Below, in pieces: positions 23,185 through 53,055 of a stretch of DNA of 64,000 nucleotides. Made by a program: the position numbers and the translations under genes. Source of the DNA: Escherichia phage vB_EcoM_Ozark; the sequence record NC_054927.1; one strand, given 5' to 3'. Positions within the stretch are counted from its first letter, which is position 1. The number at the start of each line of letters is the position of its first letter. The notes under the pieces were generated by a model that was given only the letters and a program-made list of their open reading frames with translations, had not been told where the DNA came from and searched no databases.

Positions 23185-23188
23185 CAAT

Positions 23189-23206
23189 GGGGACCGAAAG
23201 GTCCCC
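23189..23206. terminator. bidirectional terminator between convergent gene 54 and the 96-aa ORF
   Basis: GGGGACC-GAAA-GGUCCCC hairpin flanked by T-run. Confidence 0.65.
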
Positions 23207-23212
23207 ATATTT

Positions 23213-23503
23213 TTATTTACGGAATGAAATAAAAGCAGCAACTGAAGCAACTAAACTGTCTTCAATATAAACTTCAATTTTTACCGGAGCTTCTGACTCA
23301 AATTTACCTGTTACTACACCCTGAAAAATACTTTCAGTCTGTTCTGGCTTTGAAAAATTTTCAGAAGGAAAAATTCCGAACTTTTTATCTGTTCCAAAAA
23401 TTTTAATAAATTCATCGTAAACTGCTTCATTAAAAGCATTATCAGCAGGAATAACGCCTTCAACTACAAGTTCTTGACCTAAAAAGCGCAAAGAAGATTT
23501 CAT
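23213..23503 (-). CDS. hypothetical protein (alt.-3-like position)
   Basis: 96-aa ATG-initiated ORF with GAGGA SD, directly downstream of the conserved leader cassette. Confidence 0.5.
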   Translation of the reverse strand: MKSSLRFLGQELVVEGVIPADNAFNEAVYDEFIKIFGTDKKFGIFPSENFSKPEQTESIFQGVVTGKFESEAPVKIEVYIEDSLVASVAAFISFRK

Positions 23504-23510
23504 TTTGTGT

Positions 23511-23564
23511 TCCTCATGTTATGTCAGTAAGACTACTATAACACAACACGAGAGACTTGTAAAC
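23511..23564 (-). repeat. 54-bp promoter/leader cassette, copy A (52/54 identical to 38729-38782)
   Basis: Minus strand reads GTTTAC then 17-18 nt then TATAGT ... GAGGA; second copy lies upstream of alc. Confidence 0.7.
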
Positions 23565-25621
23565 TACATTTTGAACTTTTTAGACATTCCGTTAATGTTA
23601 ACCAAAGAAGCTAAGATTTGAGAAACTTCGTTTTCCTCTTCTTTTGATTCTTCTACAAGGAATTGATTAAATCCAGTCATTGGACGAACTTCACCAGTTT
23701 CCATTAGATGGTCGCCATCATATACTGATTCCTCTAATTGTTCAGAAGGAGGAACGATTGTACCTTCTATTAGATACTTGTTATAAGCAGTTTCTTTCAT
23801 AAAGTACGTACTTACTTTATTAATCTTCAGTAAAATTCCGCGCGGTAGAATAACTTCAGCTTCTGATGGAAATCCTGATAAATGACCTGGAACGATAACT
23901 TTGATTCGCTCAGCTCCTTTAATTACCATACCCACGCTAGTTTCAGCATCTTCATTAGCATATGTAGAATGACTACCCATATGCATCAAATCTTCTGCAT
24001 CAACGGAACCTTCTCCTTCACCAGAAAATACTGCACCGGAATCATCTAGAGCCATATAGTTTTTACCATGCTCACCGAAGATATTTGGTTTAAGCGATGT
24101 GGATACGAAGTTCTTGAAATAGAACATTTTATTTTCAATGTTATGACGCAAAGTTTTAAAGGTAACTTCTTGTCCACGGTAAAGTGTAGTTCCTGGAGGA
24201 AGAACTGATCCTTTGGCAAAGGCAGAATCCAACGTCTCGATGTGCTTAATAGCTCGTTCCATGTATTCTTCACGGGTAGAATCTGGTTTACCCAAAAGGA
24301 ACGAGTTCATTTCAACATATGAATCTGCACAATAATCTTCAATTACATCAGATTCAGCTTGGGTTAGTCCTTTTGGAGTTACTTCGGTGCTTGCGTATTC
24401 ATATGCCTGAGCAGCAGATTCATTAATCAATTTATAAATGCCATTCATTACAAATTGAATAATAGCTGTCTTTTCATCTGGCGTAGCTTTAGAACCTTTA
24501 ACTAAATCATTAATAATTTTCTTAATAACATCAAAGCTATTAGAAATATTAATGTCAGCAAGATCGCTTAAAATTTTATCAGTTTTATAATCAAAGAATT
24601 CTTTATTCTTTAAATATTCTTGAGAACCTTGATATGTTATATCGCTCTGCAACTTGATGGATGGATCACGTAAACGTGCATGGGCTAATGCAATGTGATT
24701 TCGGAAGTTTTCTAGTTCATAATCGCTAGATTTAAAACGAGAAGCACTCCTCATGCCACCGATAGCTCCTTTGCTGAAGTTTGAACCAATCTGAATAACG
24801 CCAGAGTTCATTGGTCCTTCTGCTTTATATACCGGAACTTTAGATTCAAACTCTTGATATTTCTTAGCAGCGAAGCTATCACCCTGAAGTGAAGCATCAA
24901 CAGTAGAATATTGAGCTTGTGCTGCTAATCGACGACTAATTTTAGTTTTCTGAATAACAGCTTGGTCCGTGCGCTTATCATTTTCTAAAGCAATAGAAGC
25001 AGCAACAGCAACAGCTTTAGGAACAGCATTACCTGTTTTAATGTCTACATAAACATCACCAACCTTCGATTCAACTTTTGTGAATAACTCAGTTGAAATA
25101 GGAGGTACACCTGGAATGTCTTCTAAATTGGCATTTTTACGGTAAACCATAATATATGCATATTTCTTATCATAGTCCCAGATTTCCTTTAAAAGAACAT
25201 ATCGACCTGCTCCTTTAGTACGTACTAAACGGTCAGCAATAACTTGCATTTGACGAGCTGCGCCATTTGTTTTACTTTTTAGTACGCGGAATAGGCATGC
25301 GTCGATTTTATACTGTTTCATTGTTTGAAGAGCAGTATCAAAAACAGCATTAATGACGCCAATTGGATTTCCACCCAAGTTTCTAAGCTTAACCAGTGAT
25401 AATTTCTCGTTGACACCTATCATTACGATATGCATCATTTTATCGCCTGGCTTAACGTTTTTATTTGTATCACCGCCAGAGGTGTATGTACAAAATCTAA
25501 ATCCAGGAAGCACACTTTCTTCACCAGCTTGAATAGCAAAAATTTGTGGTATTTTATGCTTAGGATTTAAGTTAACAACCGGCGCCGAAGCGCCGTCAAA
25601 TAATTCTGTAATAAGTTCCAT
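23564..25621 (-). CDS. Alt-family mono-ADP-ribosyltransferase paralogue
   Basis: 685-aa ORF; N-terminus MELITELFD nearly identical to the adjacent alt; C-terminal YRGQ, STS and EAEV elements fit an R-S-E ART triad. Confidence 0.8.
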   Translation of the reverse strand: MELITELFDGASAPVVNLNPKHKIPQIFAIQAGEESVLPGFRFCTYTSGGDTNKNVKPGDKMMHIVMIGVNEKLSLVKLRNLGGNPIGVINAVFDTALQTMKQYKIDACLFRVLKSKTNGAARQMQVIADRLVRTKGAGRYVLLKEIWDYDKKYAYIMVYRKNANLEDIPGVPPISTELFTKVESKVGDVYVDIKTGNAVPKAVAVAASIALENDKRTDQAVIQKTKISRRLAAQAQYSTVDASLQGDSFAAKKYQEFESKVPVYKAEGPMNSGVIQIGSNFSKGAIGGMRSASRFKSSDYELENFRNHIALAHARLRDPSIKLQSDITYQGSQEYLKNKEFFDYKTDKILSDLADINISNSFDVIKKIINDLVKGSKATPDEKTAIIQFVMNGIYKLINESAAQAYEYASTEVTPKGLTQAESDVIEDYCADSYVEMNSFLLGKPDSTREEYMERAIKHIETLDSAFAKGSVLPPGTTLYRGQEVTFKTLRHNIENKMFYFKNFVSTSLKPNIFGEHGKNYMALDDSGAVFSGEGEGSVDAEDLMHMGSHSTYANEDAETSVGMVIKGAERIKVIVPGHLSGFPSEAEVILPRGILLKINKVSTYFMKETAYNKYLIEGTIVPPSEQLEESVYDGDHLMETGEVRPMTGFNQFLVEESKEEENEVSQILASLVNINGMSKKFKM

Positions 25622-25624
25622 GAT

Positions 25625-27718
25625 TTATCCTTGAACGAACTTGTAAGGCATGTTTGTAATATCTATGCAAGACGCAATAATTCCAAGAGATGATTCTACT
25701 TTCTGTTTAACATTTGATGAAACAAATGATGCAAAGTCAACTCTATCTTCTATTTCAATACCACCAGTCATTGCAACTACTTCGCCGGTTTCCATTAAAC
25801 GGTCTCCGTCATAGATTACCGATTCGGTGAGTTCTTCTGTGGTCATAACTTCAGCTTGAATGAGTTTTGTATTATTAGACGTGGTTCCGTCATTATTAGA
25901 AGCATCAGTTATTTTATTAACTTTAACCATCAATCCGCGCGGTAGAATAACTTCAGCTTCTGTTGCTATTCCGAGACTTCCTGGATATACAACATTAACT
26001 TTATGAGCTCCATCAATTGCCCATCCTATTTGAACTTTAACGTATTCAGGATTTTCTTTATACGCTCTTATTTCGTTTGGATTAATAGTTATTCCTTCTT
26101 CATTTTTATCAACCGTTAATTCGTTACGAGCTTCTGGTTCTAAAAGACCAATACCAGCATGTGTAATTCCAAAACGCCCAAAAATGATAGGAGTTAAAGA
26201 AGTAGATACAAAATTTCTGAAATAGAACACTTTATTTTTAACTAGCGCTTCGTATATAGGAGCAGTCATACTTTGAGCACGATAAACTGTAATGCCTTCC
26301 GGTATGCGGTCACCATTTTCAAAAGCTGAATCTAAATTATTTATAGCAGATTCAATTTCTTTTTCACTCATTACATCATATCGTTCTGGATTGTAACGAC
26401 CTAAAAGAAGATTATTGATGTCAGTATATCCTGAACCACAATACTCTCTAATGCCGCGCTTTTGTGATGGAGTATATTTAGAACCATCACGGGCAATAGT
26501 AATATCAATCATTGGACCTGCACCAATTCCAGAAAAACTATAAATCATTCTTTTGAGGAATTTAGTTTTTGCTGCGTTCCAGGAATTTTTAGTCATTTCT
26601 TCCCAGACTTCATCTTGCTGCCCTTTACGAGTTTTATTATGTTTATCAAGCCAATTATCTTTATATTCTTCAAAGAATTTATTAATAGCTGCTGCGTATT
26701 TCTCTAAACATTTTATTGAAGTAGTTGGTTCATTTTTTATCGCGTTAAAAATTACATCTTTAATTTTTTCGGAAACTTCATTAACCTCACTTTTTGAAAA
26801 GAATTTATAGTCATAGTGAAGTTCATTCGCAGTTCCTTCGGCAATAATTTTTGCTGCCTTAGTTTTAGAAGCTAATGAATTAATTCCAAGCTTCATTTCT
26901 TCTGCTTCGGGAATTAAAGGAGCGGTAGCGGGTTTATTGAAATTAGCTGCGGTAGATTCATACTTCTGAAATAATTCACTTTCAAATCTAGAAGATTCCA
27001 ATGACTGACTTTGTGCAATTGCTCTACGGGAAATTTTAACTTTAACGATTACAGCTTGATCAGAACGTTTATCATTTTCTTGCGCAATAGATGCTGCAAT
27101 TGCCTCATTTTTAGTTACTTGAGCTCCAGTATCTTTATTGATATAAACATCACCGACCTTCGATTCAACTTTAGTAAAGAGCTCGGTACTAATTTCCGGA
27201 ACCCCTGGAATGTCTTCTAGTGATACATTTTTGCGATGTATAAGAATATATGCATACTTTTTATCGTAATCCCAGAGTTCCTTAAGAAGGACGTATCTGC
27301 CACCTGAACGACTACGGATAAGTCTATCAGCAATAACCTGAATTTGTCGAGCTTGACCAGCGGTTTTAGACTTAAGAATACGAAGCATACAGGCATCAAT
27401 TTTATACTGACGCATTGTTTGCATTGCAACAGTAAAAACTGAATTGATATAATTAATTGGGCTTGAACCAAGACCTTTCAATTTAGCAATTGAACCTTTA
27501 GCAGTTAATGTAAAAGGAACAATATGCATCATTTTATCGCCCATCTTTAAATCGCGATTAGTATCACCTCCAGATGTATAGGTACATAAACGAAAGCCTG
27601 GTTGTTCAATTGCGTCATCAACATGAACTGAAAAAATTTGTGGTATTTTCTTCTTTGGATTTAAGTTTGTAATCGGAAGAGTAGTATCTTCGTCAAATAA
27701 TTCTGTAATGAGTTCCAT
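25625..27718 (-). CDS. alt: Alt ADP-ribosyltransferase (packaged internal head protein)
   Basis: 697 aa from the second of two tandem ATGs (GAGAGGA SD); YRAQ, STS and EAEV ART motifs; late promoter upstream. Confidence 0.82.
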   Translation of the reverse strand: MELITELFDEDTTLPITNLNPKKKIPQIFSVHVDDAIEQPGFRLCTYTSGGDTNRDLKMGDKMMHIVPFTLTAKGSIAKLKGLGSSPINYINSVFTVAMQTMRQYKIDACMLRILKSKTAGQARQIQVIADRLIRSRSGGRYVLLKELWDYDKKYAYILIHRKNVSLEDIPGVPEISTELFTKVESKVGDVYINKDTGAQVTKNEAIAASIAQENDKRSDQAVIVKVKISRRAIAQSQSLESSRFESELFQKYESTAANFNKPATAPLIPEAEEMKLGINSLASKTKAAKIIAEGTANELHYDYKFFSKSEVNEVSEKIKDVIFNAIKNEPTTSIKCLEKYAAAINKFFEEYKDNWLDKHNKTRKGQQDEVWEEMTKNSWNAAKTKFLKRMIYSFSGIGAGPMIDITIARDGSKYTPSQKRGIREYCGSGYTDINNLLLGRYNPERYDVMSEKEIESAINNLDSAFENGDRIPEGITVYRAQSMTAPIYEALVKNKVFYFRNFVSTSLTPIIFGRFGITHAGIGLLEPEARNELTVDKNEEGITINPNEIRAYKENPEYVKVQIGWAIDGAHKVNVVYPGSLGIATEAEVILPRGLMVKVNKITDASNNDGTTSNNTKLIQAEVMTTEELTESVIYDGDRLMETGEVVAMTGGIEIEDRVDFASFVSSNVKQKVESSLGIIASCIDITNMPYKFVQG

Positions 27719-27741
27719 CATATCCTCTCTAGTGTTTATTC

Positions 27742-27749
27742 TATTTATA
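27742..27749 (-). promoter_or_regulatory. late promoter motif for alt
   Basis: Plus-strand TATTTATA is minus-strand TATAAATA, 24 nt upstream of the alt ATG. Confidence 0.55.
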
Positions 27750-27756
27750 AAATTAA

Positions 27757-27770
27757 AGGCCCGAAGGCCT
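27757..27770 (-). terminator. tetraloop hairpin upstream of alt
   Basis: AGGCC-UUCG-GGCCU on the minus strand between the 62-aa ORF and alt. Confidence 0.45.
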
Positions 27771-27959
27771 TTAATAATCTATTGGTAAGAGAGTACGATA
27801 TATTTCAAACTTTGGACCTTTTTCATAAGCATCAAAAGTTTCTGTGAATTTATTATAAGCATATGCATCTATAAATTCAATCATGATTTGTGATACAGAA
27901 GTAGAAACATCTCCACCTTCTTTTTGAGCCACGACAATTGTTTCTAAGTAAGCTTTCAT
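27771..27959 (-). CDS. hypothetical small protein downstream of DNA ligase
   Basis: 62-aa ORF whose start overlaps the gene 30 stop. Confidence 0.4.
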   Translation of the reverse strand: MKAYLETIVVAQKEGGDVSTSVSQIMIEFIDAYAYNKFTETFDAYEKGPKFEIYRTLLPIDY

Positions 27960-31695: not shown

Positions 31696-32061
31696 TTAAA
31701 TATCAAATTCGTTAAGAACTACATCAAAGATTGCTTCCAAGTGCTCAGGTTTAGCTTTGTTACTCAGAATATGACGAATCCAAGTTTTAACTAAGAGTTT
31801 ACGATTAGCACCATTCCAGCAAGGATGAGTCCCTAAATCGCGTTGGCGGAAATCATCATCCAGAGCGATTTTGAAGTTGGAACCTTTCATCGTGATTGAA
31901 ACCGTGATACCGTTTTCAAATCGCATATAAACGTAGTTAGGAGTCATATACTGTTCAATTTCGCATACTGATCCGTTTTGATGTTTCCAGAGGCAAATAG
32001 TATCAATAGAACCTGCAATACCATTAGAAACATATTTACGTTCAAAGTTGATGTAGTTCAT
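31696..32061 (-). CDS. hypothetical protein
   Basis: 121 aa from the ATG at 32061 with GGAG SD; the track ORF begins at an upstream TTG. Confidence 0.45.
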   Translation of the reverse strand: MNYINFERKYVSNGIAGSIDTICLWKHQNGSVCEIEQYMTPNYVYMRFENGITVSITMKGSNFKIALDDDFRQRDLGTHPCWNGANRKLLVKTWIRHILSNKAKPEHLEAIFDVVLNEFDI

Positions 32062-32128
32062 TTTATTCTCCAAGATGTTTAATTGCGGTACAGGTATATA
32101 ATATCATATCCTGTACCAAAGTAAACAA

Positions 32129-32461
32129 TTATTTTACTACTTTCCAATGCTGCATGTCAAGTTTACCAACTTTTTTCATCTTCTCAATTAAGCGTTCTGC
32201 ACGTTGGCGAGCTGTAACATAATGCCATTCGCCTAATTCATTTTGTTCAATTTTTCCAACGATTACTGTATTCAATTCATAAATCCAACCAGTAAAGAAA
32301 TTATGAACTTGAATTGTAAAGGTGAAATCTGTTCCCATACCTTCTGTTGTTTCTACTTCAATAATATCACCTTCAACTGCCATTAAGAACCACATAGTTT
32401 CATTATATTTACCATTGAAGCATTTAGTTTTAACTGCAGCGTTCAGATTAATCGTTTTCAT
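32129..32461 (-). CDS. hypothetical protein
   Basis: 110-aa ATG-initiated ORF. Confidence 0.45.
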   Translation of the reverse strand: MKTINLNAAVKTKCFNGKYNETMWFLMAVEGDIIEVETTEGMGTDFTFTIQVHNFFTGWIYELNTVIVGKIEQNELGEWHYVTARQRAERLIEKMKKVGKLDMQHWKVVK

Positions 32462-32571
32462 TTTATTCTCCTTTGTTTGTGTAAGATAATACTATCACAA
32501 AGGAACTATACTGTAAACAACTTTATGCAATCTTTGGAAAATAAAAAAGGACTCCCGAAGGAGTCCTCAAC

Positions 32572-32790
32572 TTATGCTTTCTGCTTACCAAAACGAGAAG
32601 CATCATCTCGAAGAACCGCACGTGCTCGGCGCATGATCTTCTCAACAGTTTGATTGATACGAGAGTTCGACCCACGCTTGTAACCAGCGCGTTTAGAATC
32701 ACCAACTTTCTTTTCAACTGCTTTCTTTGCTTTAACTTGTTTTGCCATTATAAATTCTCTTTTAAATGAAAATGCAGGACTTATTGACAT
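32572..32790 (-). CDS. small basic protein (start uncertain)
   Basis: 72-aa Lys/Arg-rich ORF; an internal ATG at 32748 is an alternative start. Confidence 0.35.
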   Translation of the reverse strand: MSISPAFSFKREFIMAKQVKAKKAVEKKVGDSKRAGYKRGSNSRINQTVEKIMRRARAVLRDDASRFGKQKA

Positions 32791-35173: not shown

Positions 35174-35406
35174 AGTACGCCATACGCCCTTTGTGCTTCA
35201 ACTAATCCATCAAAATCCAGTTTAAGATGTGTTATTTGGTCACCATCACCTGGATTCACAATTACTAATACTGAACGAGGAGTTTCGGTAATAACACGAA
35301 CCGATGTTTCAGGAAATCGTTCAGAAACCTTATTTACCAATTCCTGCGCAAATAGTTTAACTTTTTCTTGGAATTCTTTAACAGTAATTGGTTTTTCACT
35401 TAGCAT
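35170..35406 (-). CDS. hypothetical protein
   Basis: 78-aa ORF. Confidence 0.45.
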   Translation of the reverse strand: MLSEKPITVKEFQEKVKLFAQELVNKVSERFPETSVRVITETPRSVLVIVNPGDGDQITHLKLDFDGLVEAQRAYGVL

Positions 35407-35468
35407 TTTGTTTTCCTCATTTGTTTTGGTAGAGCTATAATATCACAACTCTACCATAAAGTAAACTG

Positions 35469-37877: not shown

Positions 37878-38227
37878 TTAGAAAGGTCCTGGATGTCTTC
37901 TGCGAACTTGTTGAAGGAGTTGTTGATTTGTTTTTCAACCAATCCTGGCTTATGAGCCACCACATCCGCCTTCTTTGCGTCTTTGCGCAGTTTTTCATTT
38001 TCACGCTCAATAGCAGCAATTGCCTCACGATTTTTATTATTCATCGCATCAATATAATTATACTGAATTCGCAAATTATTTAATGCTAAAGCGTTTTCAT
38101 TGGCCGTTTTTGTAATTTCTACAACAGACGTTTCTAATCTTTCAATTTTATTTTTTAAAATTAAAGAAGTTCCGCCCAATGCAATTACAATTAATAGCAA
38201 GCCTGCTGTCGTATTACTTAATTGCAT
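37874..38227 (-). CDS. pseT.3: inner-membrane spanin (i-spanin) candidate
   Basis: 117-aa ORF with N-terminal TM helix (LLLIVIALGGTSLIL) then coiled coil; 4-nt overlap with the lipoprotein ORF. Confidence 0.6.
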   Translation of the reverse strand: MQLSNTTAGLLLIVIALGGTSLILKNKIERLETSVVEITKTANENALALNNLRIQYNYIDAMNNKNREAIAAIERENEKLRKDAKKADVVAHKPGLVEKQINNSFNKFAEDIQDLSK

Positions 38228-38724
38228 AAAGTTTTAATAACCTCTATAATATCGTCTTGAGAAAGACCGTTAATTAAAATATGATGTTCAGCCGGAGATT
38301 TAGAAATTTTAAAGCATGCCTCAACATCTTCTGCCATATCTGATGCGCTACGATTTGGATTACTAATTCCAAGACGATGTTTTCCCGTCAAAGGATTAAC
38401 GATGATATAGCATTTACAGTTGTTAATATGAACATTAGGTTGAGTCTGATTAATGAACACATCACAATCATATTTCGCAAGCTGATTTTCTAAAAAGACT
38501 TTCATCTCCTCAACTGCATCAGGAAGCATATCACGGGCTTGCTCAAGACGACGATTTCGATATTCTTTAATGGTCGTTTTCCGCTTGACTTGCTTAGCTA
38601 AATCTTTCTTAAGATCGGTGATATATCCAACTCGACGATTTCCTTTAAATACAGAAATCCCATCTGTAGTATCACCGTATGCTTCAACGACCATTTCAGT
38701 AGTAATAAGCTGTAAATCCATCAT
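38218..38724 (-). CDS. alc: Alc, inhibitor of host transcription
   Basis: 167/168-aa ORF at the T4 alc position, preceded by the conserved leader cassette. Confidence 0.65.
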   Translation of the reverse strand: MMDLQLITTEMVVEAYGDTTDGISVFKGNRRVGYITDLKKDLAKQVKRKTTIKEYRNRRLEQARDMLPDAVEEMKVFLENQLAKYDCDVFINQTQPNVHINNCKCYIIVNPLTGKHRLGISNPNRSASDMAEDVEACFKISKSPAEHHILINGLSQDDIIEVIKTLCN

Positions 38725-38728
38725 AAAG

Positions 38729-38782
38729 TCCTCATGTTATGTCAGTAAGACTACTGTAACACAACACGAGGGACTTGTAAAC
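38729..38782 (-). repeat. 54-bp promoter/leader cassette, copy B (52/54 identical to 23511-23564)
   Basis: Minus strand reads GTTTAC then 17-18 nt then TACAGT ... GAGGA; ends 2 nt before the AUGAUG of alc. Confidence 0.7.
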
Positions 38783-38785
38783 AGC

Positions 38786-40373
<1,588 letters not shown>

Positions 40374-48458: not shown

Positions 48459-48701
48459 TCAAACAGACTTTTTCACAATTTTCCAATCAGCTTTAAACTG
48501 TTCAACGTCAGAATGGTAAATCCAGAATCCTGCGCTTTCTCCATCCTCATAAAGAGGGCATCCATCACATTCATCTTCCCATCCCATATCACGCAAAAGA
48601 CGTTCAGCTTTTTCAACAAGTTCAGAATCTTTACCAATAATATTAAAATACCATTTACCTCTAACTTCTGAATCTTTGATACTCTGACGTTGTAATCTCA
48701 T
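48459..48701 (-). CDS. hypothetical protein
   Basis: 80 aa from the ATG at 48701 with AAGGAG SD; the track ORF begins at an upstream TTG. Confidence 0.4.
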   Translation of the reverse strand: MRLQRQSIKDSEVRGKWYFNIIGKDSELVEKAERLLRDMGWEDECDGCPLYEDGESAGFWIYHSDVEQFKADWKIVKKSV

Positions 48702-48758
48702 TTTATTCTCCTTAGTTGATAAGGCTATAGTATCACTACCATAGCCTGTTGTAAACAA

Positions 48759-52075: not shown

Positions 52076-52993
52076 TCAAAATTCATTAATGCTATTAGTT
52101 AATTTAGAAAGACCCGCTTTTACAAAATATGAATAAATTTTGCCACGCGGTGGTAATTTATATGAATTATAGTAATTCACAATGTTTGAAGCAATATTAT
52201 CAGGAATATAATCAAAATCAATTAGAACTAAATTTTCTTTATAACGATTATATTCAGATTCTGTGAGAAGCACCTTAGCTTGCTCACGGTCATTAGCAAT
52301 AGCTTCAACGATTGAAGTTTTCATTGAAGGAGTTCGTTCACCTTCAACTCTGGTAAACCAAAAGTCAGATCGTACTTTAACTGAAGCAACGTTATCCTTT
52401 TTGTCGCCTTTAAGGATTTTAGTCATGCAATCAATTTCAGCAGAACCGCTTTTAATTTTAACCCATTTCTTATGCATCGGTGACCATTGCTTAACATTTG
52501 GATATTTGTGAAGCTGTGTAAAGTCACCATCCGATGAAATGATTAAAATCTTGTGTCCTTCTAAAGAGAACTTTTTAACAAGAACAGCAATGTGGTCATC
52601 CGCTTCATACTTATCAATATCCATAACAATGTATGGCATATAAGCTTTCAATTCATCTATAACTTTATGGCTGGATTCAAAATAACCTTCCCAGTCCCAA
52701 GTAGATTCTTCTCGTGCTTTTCCACGGTTTTTCTTATAATAATAAGCGAAATCACGACGCCAGTATCCAGATTTCGCGTTATCAATACACAGTACAATTT
52801 TAGTGTATCCAAGCGTTTTTGCTTTTTTGACATTAAACTTAATTGAGTTCAATATCAAATGACGAACCATTGATAAATTAATTTTTTCTTTATCTGGGAA
52901 GTTTACTAAAGCAGTTGAAAGCGCAATTTGACTAAAGTCAATAAAGCAAATTCCTTCTTTGTAATCTTCATCCAACATCATTTCTAAATCCAT
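52076..52993 (-). CDS. rnh: RNase H (5'-3' exonuclease, FEN family)
   Basis: 305 aa from the ATG at 52993 (MDLEMMLDEDYKEG); the track ORF begins at a TTG. Confidence 0.88.
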   Translation of the reverse strand: MDLEMMLDEDYKEGICFIDFSQIALSTALVNFPDKEKINLSMVRHLILNSIKFNVKKAKTLGYTKIVLCIDNAKSGYWRRDFAYYYKKNRGKAREESTWDWEGYFESSHKVIDELKAYMPYIVMDIDKYEADDHIAVLVKKFSLEGHKILIISSDGDFTQLHKYPNVKQWSPMHKKWVKIKSGSAEIDCMTKILKGDKKDNVASVKVRSDFWFTRVEGERTPSMKTSIVEAIANDREQAKVLLTESEYNRYKENLVLIDFDYIPDNIASNIVNYYNSYKLPPRGKIYSYFVKAGLSKLTNSINEF

Positions 52994-53055
52994 ATGAACC
53001 TCGTTCAATTAGTGAGATTTCTATTATATACCATCCAAATCTTAAAGTAAACAAG

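Follow-up and report, generated by a model that had tools for sequence, protein, structure and literature searches.

In the T4-type phages, promoter early stem-loops (PeSLs) have been described in two studies (Arbiol et al. 2010, PMC2839356; Comeau et al. 2014, PMC4122927), with TTTACW-N17-TAYWAT as the PST/T4 consensus of the early sigma-70 promoter. Another design is known from the T4 genes e, soc, 49 and I-TevI, where a hairpin with an internal promoter sequesters the ribosome-binding site (RBS); for e and I-TevI, this masking has been demonstrated experimentally (Uzan and Miller 2010, PMC3014915). Here we analyse two nearly identical cassettes in a stretch of 64,000 nucleotides from Escherichia phage vB_EcoM_Ozark (sequence record NC_054927.1; hereafter the window), one before alt.-3 and one before alc. 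Both cassettes have several PeSL traits: they span the distance from a stop codon to a start codon, they carry an early sigma-70 promoter and an SD sequence at the 3' end, and their stem-loop overlaps the -10 element, which is one of the two commonest PeSL positions. Like the similar PeSL copies at several loci, the two cassettes may also serve as substrates for homologous exchange. We consider it rather probable that each is a composite cassette, in which an early promoter lies within an SD-masking hairpin, and that this cassette was derived from alc, copied to alt.-3 and homogenised by gene conversion.

The two copies lie on the minus strand of the window at 23511-23564 (copy A) and 38729-38782 (copy B). 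As claimed in an earlier, sequence-only reading of this DNA, they are nearly identical and on the same strand, with 52 of 54 positions in common. Copy A, read from 23564 to 23511, is GTTTACAAGTCTCTCGTGTTGTGTTATAGTAGTCTTACTGACATAACATGAGGA; copy B departs from it by a T to C change at cassette position 12 and by a second change, at position 27, that turns TATAGT into TACAGT. No match with up to 3 mismatches was obtained by chance in 100 dinucleotide-preserving shuffles, and identity is lost sharply at either edge of the repeat when the copies are aligned. A search for further copies, run within the window, recovered the two known ones and found no third copy, whole or half: there are exactly two.

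Each copy fills an entire intergenic spacer. Copy A (23511..23564, minus strand) stands between a gene for a 685-aa Alt paralog at the alt.-2 position (23564..25621) and alt.-3 (23213..23503, ATG at 23503), whose product has 96 aa. The G of GTTTAC, at 23564, also completes the TAG stop codon of the gene upstream. Copy B (38729..38782, minus strand) stands between rnlA, or gene 63 (38786..39946), and alc (38218..38724), and the upstream TAA stop lies 3 nt before the cassette. The leader had been proposed to run through a GAGGA SD to the start codons of the 96-aa ORF and alc, which proved correct at both loci with a GAGGA-ATG spacing of 7 nt. In copy A, GAGGA is followed after 7 nt by the alt.-3 ATG; in copy B the distance to the alc ATG is 4 or 7 nt, depending on which of two in-frame ATGs is used (38719..38724, minus strand), and the second of these (38721-38719), the start annotated in T4, gives the same 7-nt spacing as at alt.-3. 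The gene upstream of copy A (23564-25621, minus strand) encodes an intact Alt-like ADP-ribosyltransferase paralog of 685 aa at the alt.-1/alt.-2 position and adjoins alt itself (25625..27721, 698 aa); in T4 this paralog is decayed, and alt.-1 and alt.-2 are its fragments.

Over a 2-kb stretch around copy A, identity to the closest Tequatrovirus relatives, for example vB_EcoM-UFV13 and RB32, was 97.5-98.4%, and by this comparison the window phage is a Tequatrovirus. A 66-nt query found two sites per record in T4 (NC_000866; 123,040-123,093 and 136,283-136,336) and in about 500 relatives. When these were compared by blastn-short, GTCC and TATAGT were present in both copies of most relatives, and by this comparison the two differences between A and B in the window are private variants. 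We had also considered the differences as a locus-specific strengthening of hairpin B (see below); this idea was dropped, as the other phages show both differences to be private variants.

The promoter reads TTTACA-N17-TGtTATAGT in copy A and TTTACA-N17-TGtTACAGT in copy B; the hexamers are thus those first proposed, TTTACA followed after 17 nt by TATAGT or TACAGT, each after a TGn. In copy A, the -35 hexamer is at 23558..23563 (GTTTAC being 23564-23559) and the extended -10 at 23535..23543, with the hexamer itself at 23540-23535; in copy B, the corresponding elements are at 38776..38781 and 38753..38761 (hexamer 38758-38753), all on the minus strand. TACAGT, the -10 of copy B in the window, is the weaker match. 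We infer the start site from spacing, as the 7th nucleotide after the -10 hexamer, which places the predicted +1 near 23528 in copy A and near 38746 in copy B.

That these are early promoters, as had been suggested, was sustained by the T4-type consensus and by further evidence. First, GTTTAC-N16-19-TAnnnT sites are enriched in the window (12 against 3.5 expected) and nearly all of them precede early-strand genes. A generic sigma-70 scan of the window showed no enrichment over shuffles and was given no weight by itself. Second, the record of Yersinia phage fPS-65 labels copy A a 'predicted early promoter'. Third, the supplementary tables of a T4 time-course study list alt.-3 and alc with early RNA and early protein, alt.-1 and alt.-2 with middle RNA, and rnlA with early RNA and late protein, while the text of that study cites alt as a late gene. 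An early gene located directly 3' of middle or late genes needs an early start of its own, and the T4 timing therefore supports initiation at or near the cassettes. The ordinary T4 early promoters, Pe (Hinton 2010, PMC2988021), have the same -35, TGn, -10 and 17-nt spacing, precede early genes and follow an A/T-rich stretch, which here lies within the preceding gene. However, ordinary Pe promoters share the consensus alone, the median identity of cassettes from -35 to ATG being 0.67 in our dataset, whereas copies A and B are 96% identical, spacer and leader included.

Structure prediction indicates that the early promoter is nested in a hairpin able to hide the RBS. In this hairpin, the promoter spacer is the 5' anti-SD arm, the -10 element is at the top, between the main stem and a small apical stem, and the leader including GAGG is the 3' arm. 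The predicted stems have 17-21 bp and fold at about -20 to -28 kcal/mol. In hairpin A, the 5' arm (23540..23556, minus strand) covers the promoter spacer and, at its end, the first base of the -10 hexamer, and the 3' arm (23509..23525, minus strand) is the leader sequence GACAUAACAUGAGGAAC, with the SD GAGG at 23515-23512. In hairpin B, the 5' arm (38758..38776, minus strand) is AAGUCC(C)UCGUGUUGUGUU, with one bulged C, and the 3' arm (38726..38743, minus strand) is GACAUAACAUGAGGACUU, with GAGG at 38733-38730; it extends 3 nt past the repeat into locus-specific sequence. Read-through RNA of the window folded at -21.3 kcal/mol for A (z -3.1) and at -28.6 kcal/mol for B (z -5.3), and the common Tequatrovirus alleles at -24.4 and -25.7 kcal/mol (z -5.9), with none of 200 shuffles as good. 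All four SD bases were paired in both the MFE and the centroid structures, within the 3' arm GACAUAACAUGAGG. Part of this complementarity is CCUC/GAGG, which is the SD itself and is constrained anyway. Neither cassette had an Rfam match at E <= 1.

The leader starting at the predicted +1 is nearly unstructured (0 to -4 kcal/mol), and the two own-promoter leaders, folded separately, gave -2.5 and -4.6 kcal/mol with z near 0. The predicted +1 falls inside the apical stem-loop, so that a transcript from the cassette's own promoter would be devoid of the anti-SD arm. In this model, only RNA initiated upstream can form the hairpin, and RNA from the own promoter should keep its RBS free. The sequence-only reading had suggested a shared regulatory RNA element and proposed folding of the shared leader. 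This stood for read-through RNA, where promoter spacer and leader-SD form a long and strongly folding hairpin, but not for the leader made from the own promoter, which is essentially without structure.

We compared the rnlA-alc spacers of nine further phages. The same layout with different arms precedes alc in Karamvirus, Jiaodavirus, Dhakavirus, Klebsiella phage Biddle, Roskildevirus and Kagamiyamavirus. In these six, TTTACA is followed at once by the anti-SD arm, then by a loop with TGn and -10, and last by a complementary arm that contains GAGG or GGAG and stops 6-10 nt short of the ATG; UCUCCAUUUGGUU/AACCAAAUGGAGA and UCCUCAUCAG/CUGAUGAGGA are examples of such arms. The six spacers folded at -16 to -23 kcal/mol (z -4.5 to -6.6, 0 of 200 shuffles each), and with Tequatrovirus included the SD tetramer lies within the 3' arm in seven of the seven hairpin-bearing genera. 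GGAG, the motif cut by the T4 RegB nuclease, is present in the alc cassettes of Karam-, Dhaka- and Roskildevirus and missing from the Tequatrovirus SD GAGGA (23512-23515, 38730-38733).

Pairing is kept across these genera in spite of the different arms. More than one Watson-Crick type was found at 11 of 16 stem positions in an SD-anchored table, and 15 of 18 pairs were changed on both sides with pairing kept in a covariance-model alignment, both kinds of alignment leaning towards structure. The covariance model, built from Tequatrovirus copies, scored the six cassettes of other genera at 18-32 bits. With one row per genus, 88.9% of the pairing cells were paired, against 69.5 +/- 3.3% after partner shuffling (0 of 2000), and the stem outside the SD core gave the same result. 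MAFFT with RNAalifold found no common structure in the cross-genus set, in which it misaligned arms of differing length. Covariation within Tequatrovirus alone, where variation is scarce, was indistinguishable from shuffles (132 of 500); the variable stem sites that were examined keep pairing, as in SHFML-26, where C-G passes through U.G to U-A.

The hairpin was absent before alc in Mosigvirus (z -0.9) and is thus dispensable in at least one genus. It was also absent in Acinetobacter phage Ac42, where alc follows pseT.2 and not rnlA, and Aeromonas phage 31 has a different arrangement. A pattern scan of IMG/VR returned 8 loci only, and the annotated phage collection was used instead. From the spacers compared, we regard the hairpin architecture as ancestral for alc.

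This conservation bears on the simplest alternative, that the cassette is a mere promoter, recently duplicated or converted, with an inverted repeat of no function. Such a reading would agree with the divergence of the B copy, which between Tequatrovirus genomes averages 1.7 of 54 positions (about 3%) and does not seem lower than that of the 2-kb surroundings of copy A (a few per cent), and with the lack of significant covariation within the genus, so that extra constraint is not evident there. However, a hairpin around the promoter precedes alc in six more genera, with significant folds and compensatory changes, which is hard to explain without selection. We therefore find a functionless duplication very improbable.

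It is also conceivable, though unlikely, that the hairpin acts mainly as a terminator or attenuator on upstream RNA and covers the SD only incidentally. According to Arbiol et al. (2010), a PeSL stem-loop of RB49/phi1 placed between promoter and lacZ cut expression about as much as rrnB T1, and in the window strong hairpins that span the -10 and leave out the SD occur at other early promoters (35466, 32126 and 48756; z -3.8 to -5.9). Against this, the stem of copy A has no U-run behind it (AACACAAAAUG) and that of copy B is followed only by UUUAU, the terminator scan called neither cassette, and the constant inclusion of the SD tetramer in the 3' arm in all seven genera would be needless in a terminator.

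Those other early promoters of the window share the PeSL layout and not the sequence. GTTTAC-type promoters are found on the minus strand at 35404-35466 (-10 flanked by GGTAGAG/CTCTACC; z -5.9), 32059-32126 (GGTACAGG/CCTGTACC; z -4.9) and 48699-48756 (GGCTAT/ATAGCC; z -3.8), each with the SD outside the hairpin, and at 52991-53052 (AGATTT/AAATCT). Judged by their -10-flanking inverted repeats, these are of PeSL-type architecture. Yet another early promoter, at 32459-32518 (minus strand), precedes a 110-aa homologue of gene 30.8 (32129..32461); here the -10 is in the loop and the 3' arm ACAAAGGA covers the SD (-12.1 kcal/mol, z -2.2). Its counterparts in T4 and SHFML-26 were the top covariance-model matches other than alc and alt.-3 (22.3 and 19.6 bits), and on the predicted fold this cassette may stand beside the other two as a diverged third example of the design. 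Just upstream of it, 32533-32616 (minus strand) matched Rfam Atu_C8, a Rhizobiales sRNA, at 31.4 bits against a gathering threshold of 50 (E 0.006), which is probably a chance match.

The alt.-3 locus of other genera indicates where the second Tequatrovirus copy came from. The spacers between alt and alt.-3 of Dhaka-, Mosig-, Marfa-, Kanagawa- and Kagamiyamavirus have an early promoter with TAG overlapping GTTTAC. The long SD helix is absent from these spacers, which hold only a small within-spacer hairpin (z -0.5 to -2.5). Since the hairpin is missing at alt.-3 in these five genera, the alt.-3 cassette of Tequatrovirus looks like a transplanted alc cassette: most likely, alt.-3 of Tequatrovirus received a copy of the alc cassette, a direction and a mechanism that are deduced from comparison of the spacers. 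In the alt.-3 spacers of Dhakavirus FB (L023) and Kagamiyamavirus EcS1 (L027), a 5-bp stem joins CCUUA or CCUCA to the SD UGAGG (z about -2.4), with its 5' strand right at the predicted start site. This small predicted stem could be a weaker version of a start placed inside a mask.

The two Tequatrovirus loci also share variants. At locus A, about 18% of some 497 records have the A-type allele and about 57% a B-like allele, the rest being other variants including that of the window. The A-type 5'-end allele, GUUCCUUAUG, pairs perfectly over 17 bp in a stem that takes in the A-specific flank GGAAC; GUCCCUCGUG, the B-like allele, is the sequence found in the alc copy. Each allele matches one flank, GUUCC pairing with the A-specific GGAAC and AAGUCC with the B-specific GGACUU. 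In IME339 both copies are identical, with two derived loop changes in common, and in T2 one such change is in common. In seven genomes, the mean distance between A and B within a genome was 2.43, as compared to 3.62 for A orthologues between genomes. Alleles common to both loci point to ongoing or repeated gene conversion between copies 13-15 kb apart, and the earlier suggestion of a duplication whose copies are recombination substrates gains support from the shared derived variants and from allele mixing across phages. The gene order between the copies includes genes 30, 31, cd and pseT. Genes 30 and 31 are essential in T4. A deletion between the copies would remove all four of these genes, and conversion is thus the expected visible outcome.

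Cassettes may have moved elsewhere too. The Mosigvirus alc cassette (L019 243-303; L031 242-303) resembles cassettes of the alt.-3 type most, with 0.83 identity to that of Dhakavirus alt.-3 and a background median of 0.67, which is suggestive of an exchange in the direction opposite to that in Tequatrovirus. Moreover, a partial cassette running from the -10 to the ATG, TATAGTAGTCCTACTGAAACATGAGGAACACAAAATG, is present in Escherichia phage mobillu, a Mosigvirus (L002 2483-2543), and also at L006 4087-4140. It matches copy A including the locus-specific AACACAAA, lies between denB and ndd, where it precedes a 66-aa ORF that is unrelated, and is without a complementary 5' arm. Its sequence suggests that the leader half of the cassette moved between loci and genera.

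Exchange between the loci would also be expected if the palindrome were a DNA-level element, a cruciform or protein-binding site that targets recombination, and the PeSL authors speculate that a recombination protein recognises stem-loops. The two loci evidently swap sequence. We nevertheless find this reading hardly credible. In Tequatrovirus, 3-4 pairs of the stem are G.U, and these would be mismatched in DNA as well as in the complementary strand. Owing to them, the sense strand reaches -24.4 kcal/mol and the antisense strand only -15.4 kcal/mol, an asymmetry that favours structure at the RNA level over the DNA level. The stems of the other genera are Watson-Crick paired throughout and their antisense strand folds equally well, so that the strand support for RNA comes from Tequatrovirus only. 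Moreover, about 50 bp of plain homology suffices for T4 recombination, as the PeSL authors state, citing Singer et al. 1982.

We return to the preferred reading, an early promoter within an SD-masking hairpin. Early in infection, host RNA polymerase would start within the hairpin, the short leader would expose GAGGA, and Alc and Alt.-3 would be made in the first minutes. Later, RNA crossing the cassette would have both arms, the 17-21 bp helix would form and the RBS would be buried, leaving alc and alt.-3 poorly translated on long RNAs; we infer this masking in vivo from the predicted structure. Read-through would be provided at copy B by long transcripts via nrdB-denA-rnlA, and at copy A by late RNA that starts at the TATAAATA promoter of alt. 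A late-promoter motif TATAAATA (27749-27742) is indeed found about 20 nt upstream of alt (25625..27721), together with a terminator-like hairpin, AAAGGCC-TTCG-GGCCTTT (27742..27775 for both, minus strand), and is the likely source of late read-through across cassette A. Another terminator-like hairpin, at 23187..23208 between alt.-3 and gene 54 and present on both strands, marks the end of the alt, alt.-2 and alt.-3 transcription unit; between the alt late promoter and 23187-23208, the scan found no terminator-like hairpin on the same strand. At the junction upstream of alt, the terminator is followed by the late promoter (AAAGGCCTTCGGGCCTTTAATTTTATAAATA), an order of motifs that would keep early transcripts of gene 30 and alt.1 from running on into alt and would start late transcription.

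The upstream stop codons are 3-8 nt from the stem base, and a ribosome terminating there could partly open the stem. This proximity could be taken to mean that the hairpin is a coupling gate opened by upstream ribosomes, or else an RNase III or 3' exonuclease processing or stability element, a helix of 17-21 bp being within the size range of RNase III substrates. Both variants together appear quite improbable to us, as a terminating ribosome would, given its footprint, reach only the first few base pairs of the stem, and as T4 protein timing, with downstream genes early and upstream genes late, argues against tight coupling.

The masking cassette may further be viewed as a portable module for early-only expression, a mirror image of the classical T4 lysozyme switch in that immediate-early transcripts alone would be translated, which guards alc in at least seven genera of Tevenvirinae, silences it on late or long RNA, moved whole to alt.-3 in Tequatrovirus, with an exchange in Mosigvirus that was perhaps in reverse, and is homogenised by conversion at a distance of 13-15 kb. 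We put this wider proposal forward tentatively, as a serious possibility that does not yet reach an even chance.

If the mask works, it would explain how Alc and Alt.-3 are confined to the first minutes of infection though their coding sequences persist on later polycistronic RNAs. Alc shuts off transcription of cytosine-containing DNA, and the small protein Alt.-3 has lately been linked to escape from CmdTAC defence. A working mask would also be relevant to the discrepancy between RNA and protein timing noted by T4 omics studies. The cassettes offer a natural example of a promoter and translational-control module that moved between loci and was homogenised by gene conversion, and module transfer with conversion is the process by which PeSLs have been proposed to drive genome shuffling. 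The element is small, belongs to a model phage and lends itself to direct tests.

How do the cassettes finally stand among known systems? PeSL stem-loops are read by their authors as terminators or attenuators, and the sections consulted of the two PeSL papers (PMC2839356, PMC4122927) do not mention SD sequestration or a promoter placed inside a mask; unlike PeSLs, which come in several similar copies concentrated in hyperplastic regions, the present copies are only two, lie 13-15 kb apart and flank essential genes. The gene e class is similar in that the SD is held in a helix on RNA initiated upstream, that a promoter in the 5' strand or beside it gives proximal transcripts without this strand, which are translated, and that the structure is kept among related phages. 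However, that class has a late internal promoter (TATAAATA) and silences early or middle RNAs, whereas the late-promoter motif TATAAATA is absent from both cassettes, whose internal promoter is of the early sigma-70 type and whose silenced RNAs would be late or long: the timing is inverted, and masking here is predicted. In the papers searched or read, an SD-masking hairpin is not described for alc or for alt.-3. Measured against these papers, the cassettes are new, well-conserved examples of known T4 regulatory tricks, with an inverted temporal logic, rather than a new type of element.
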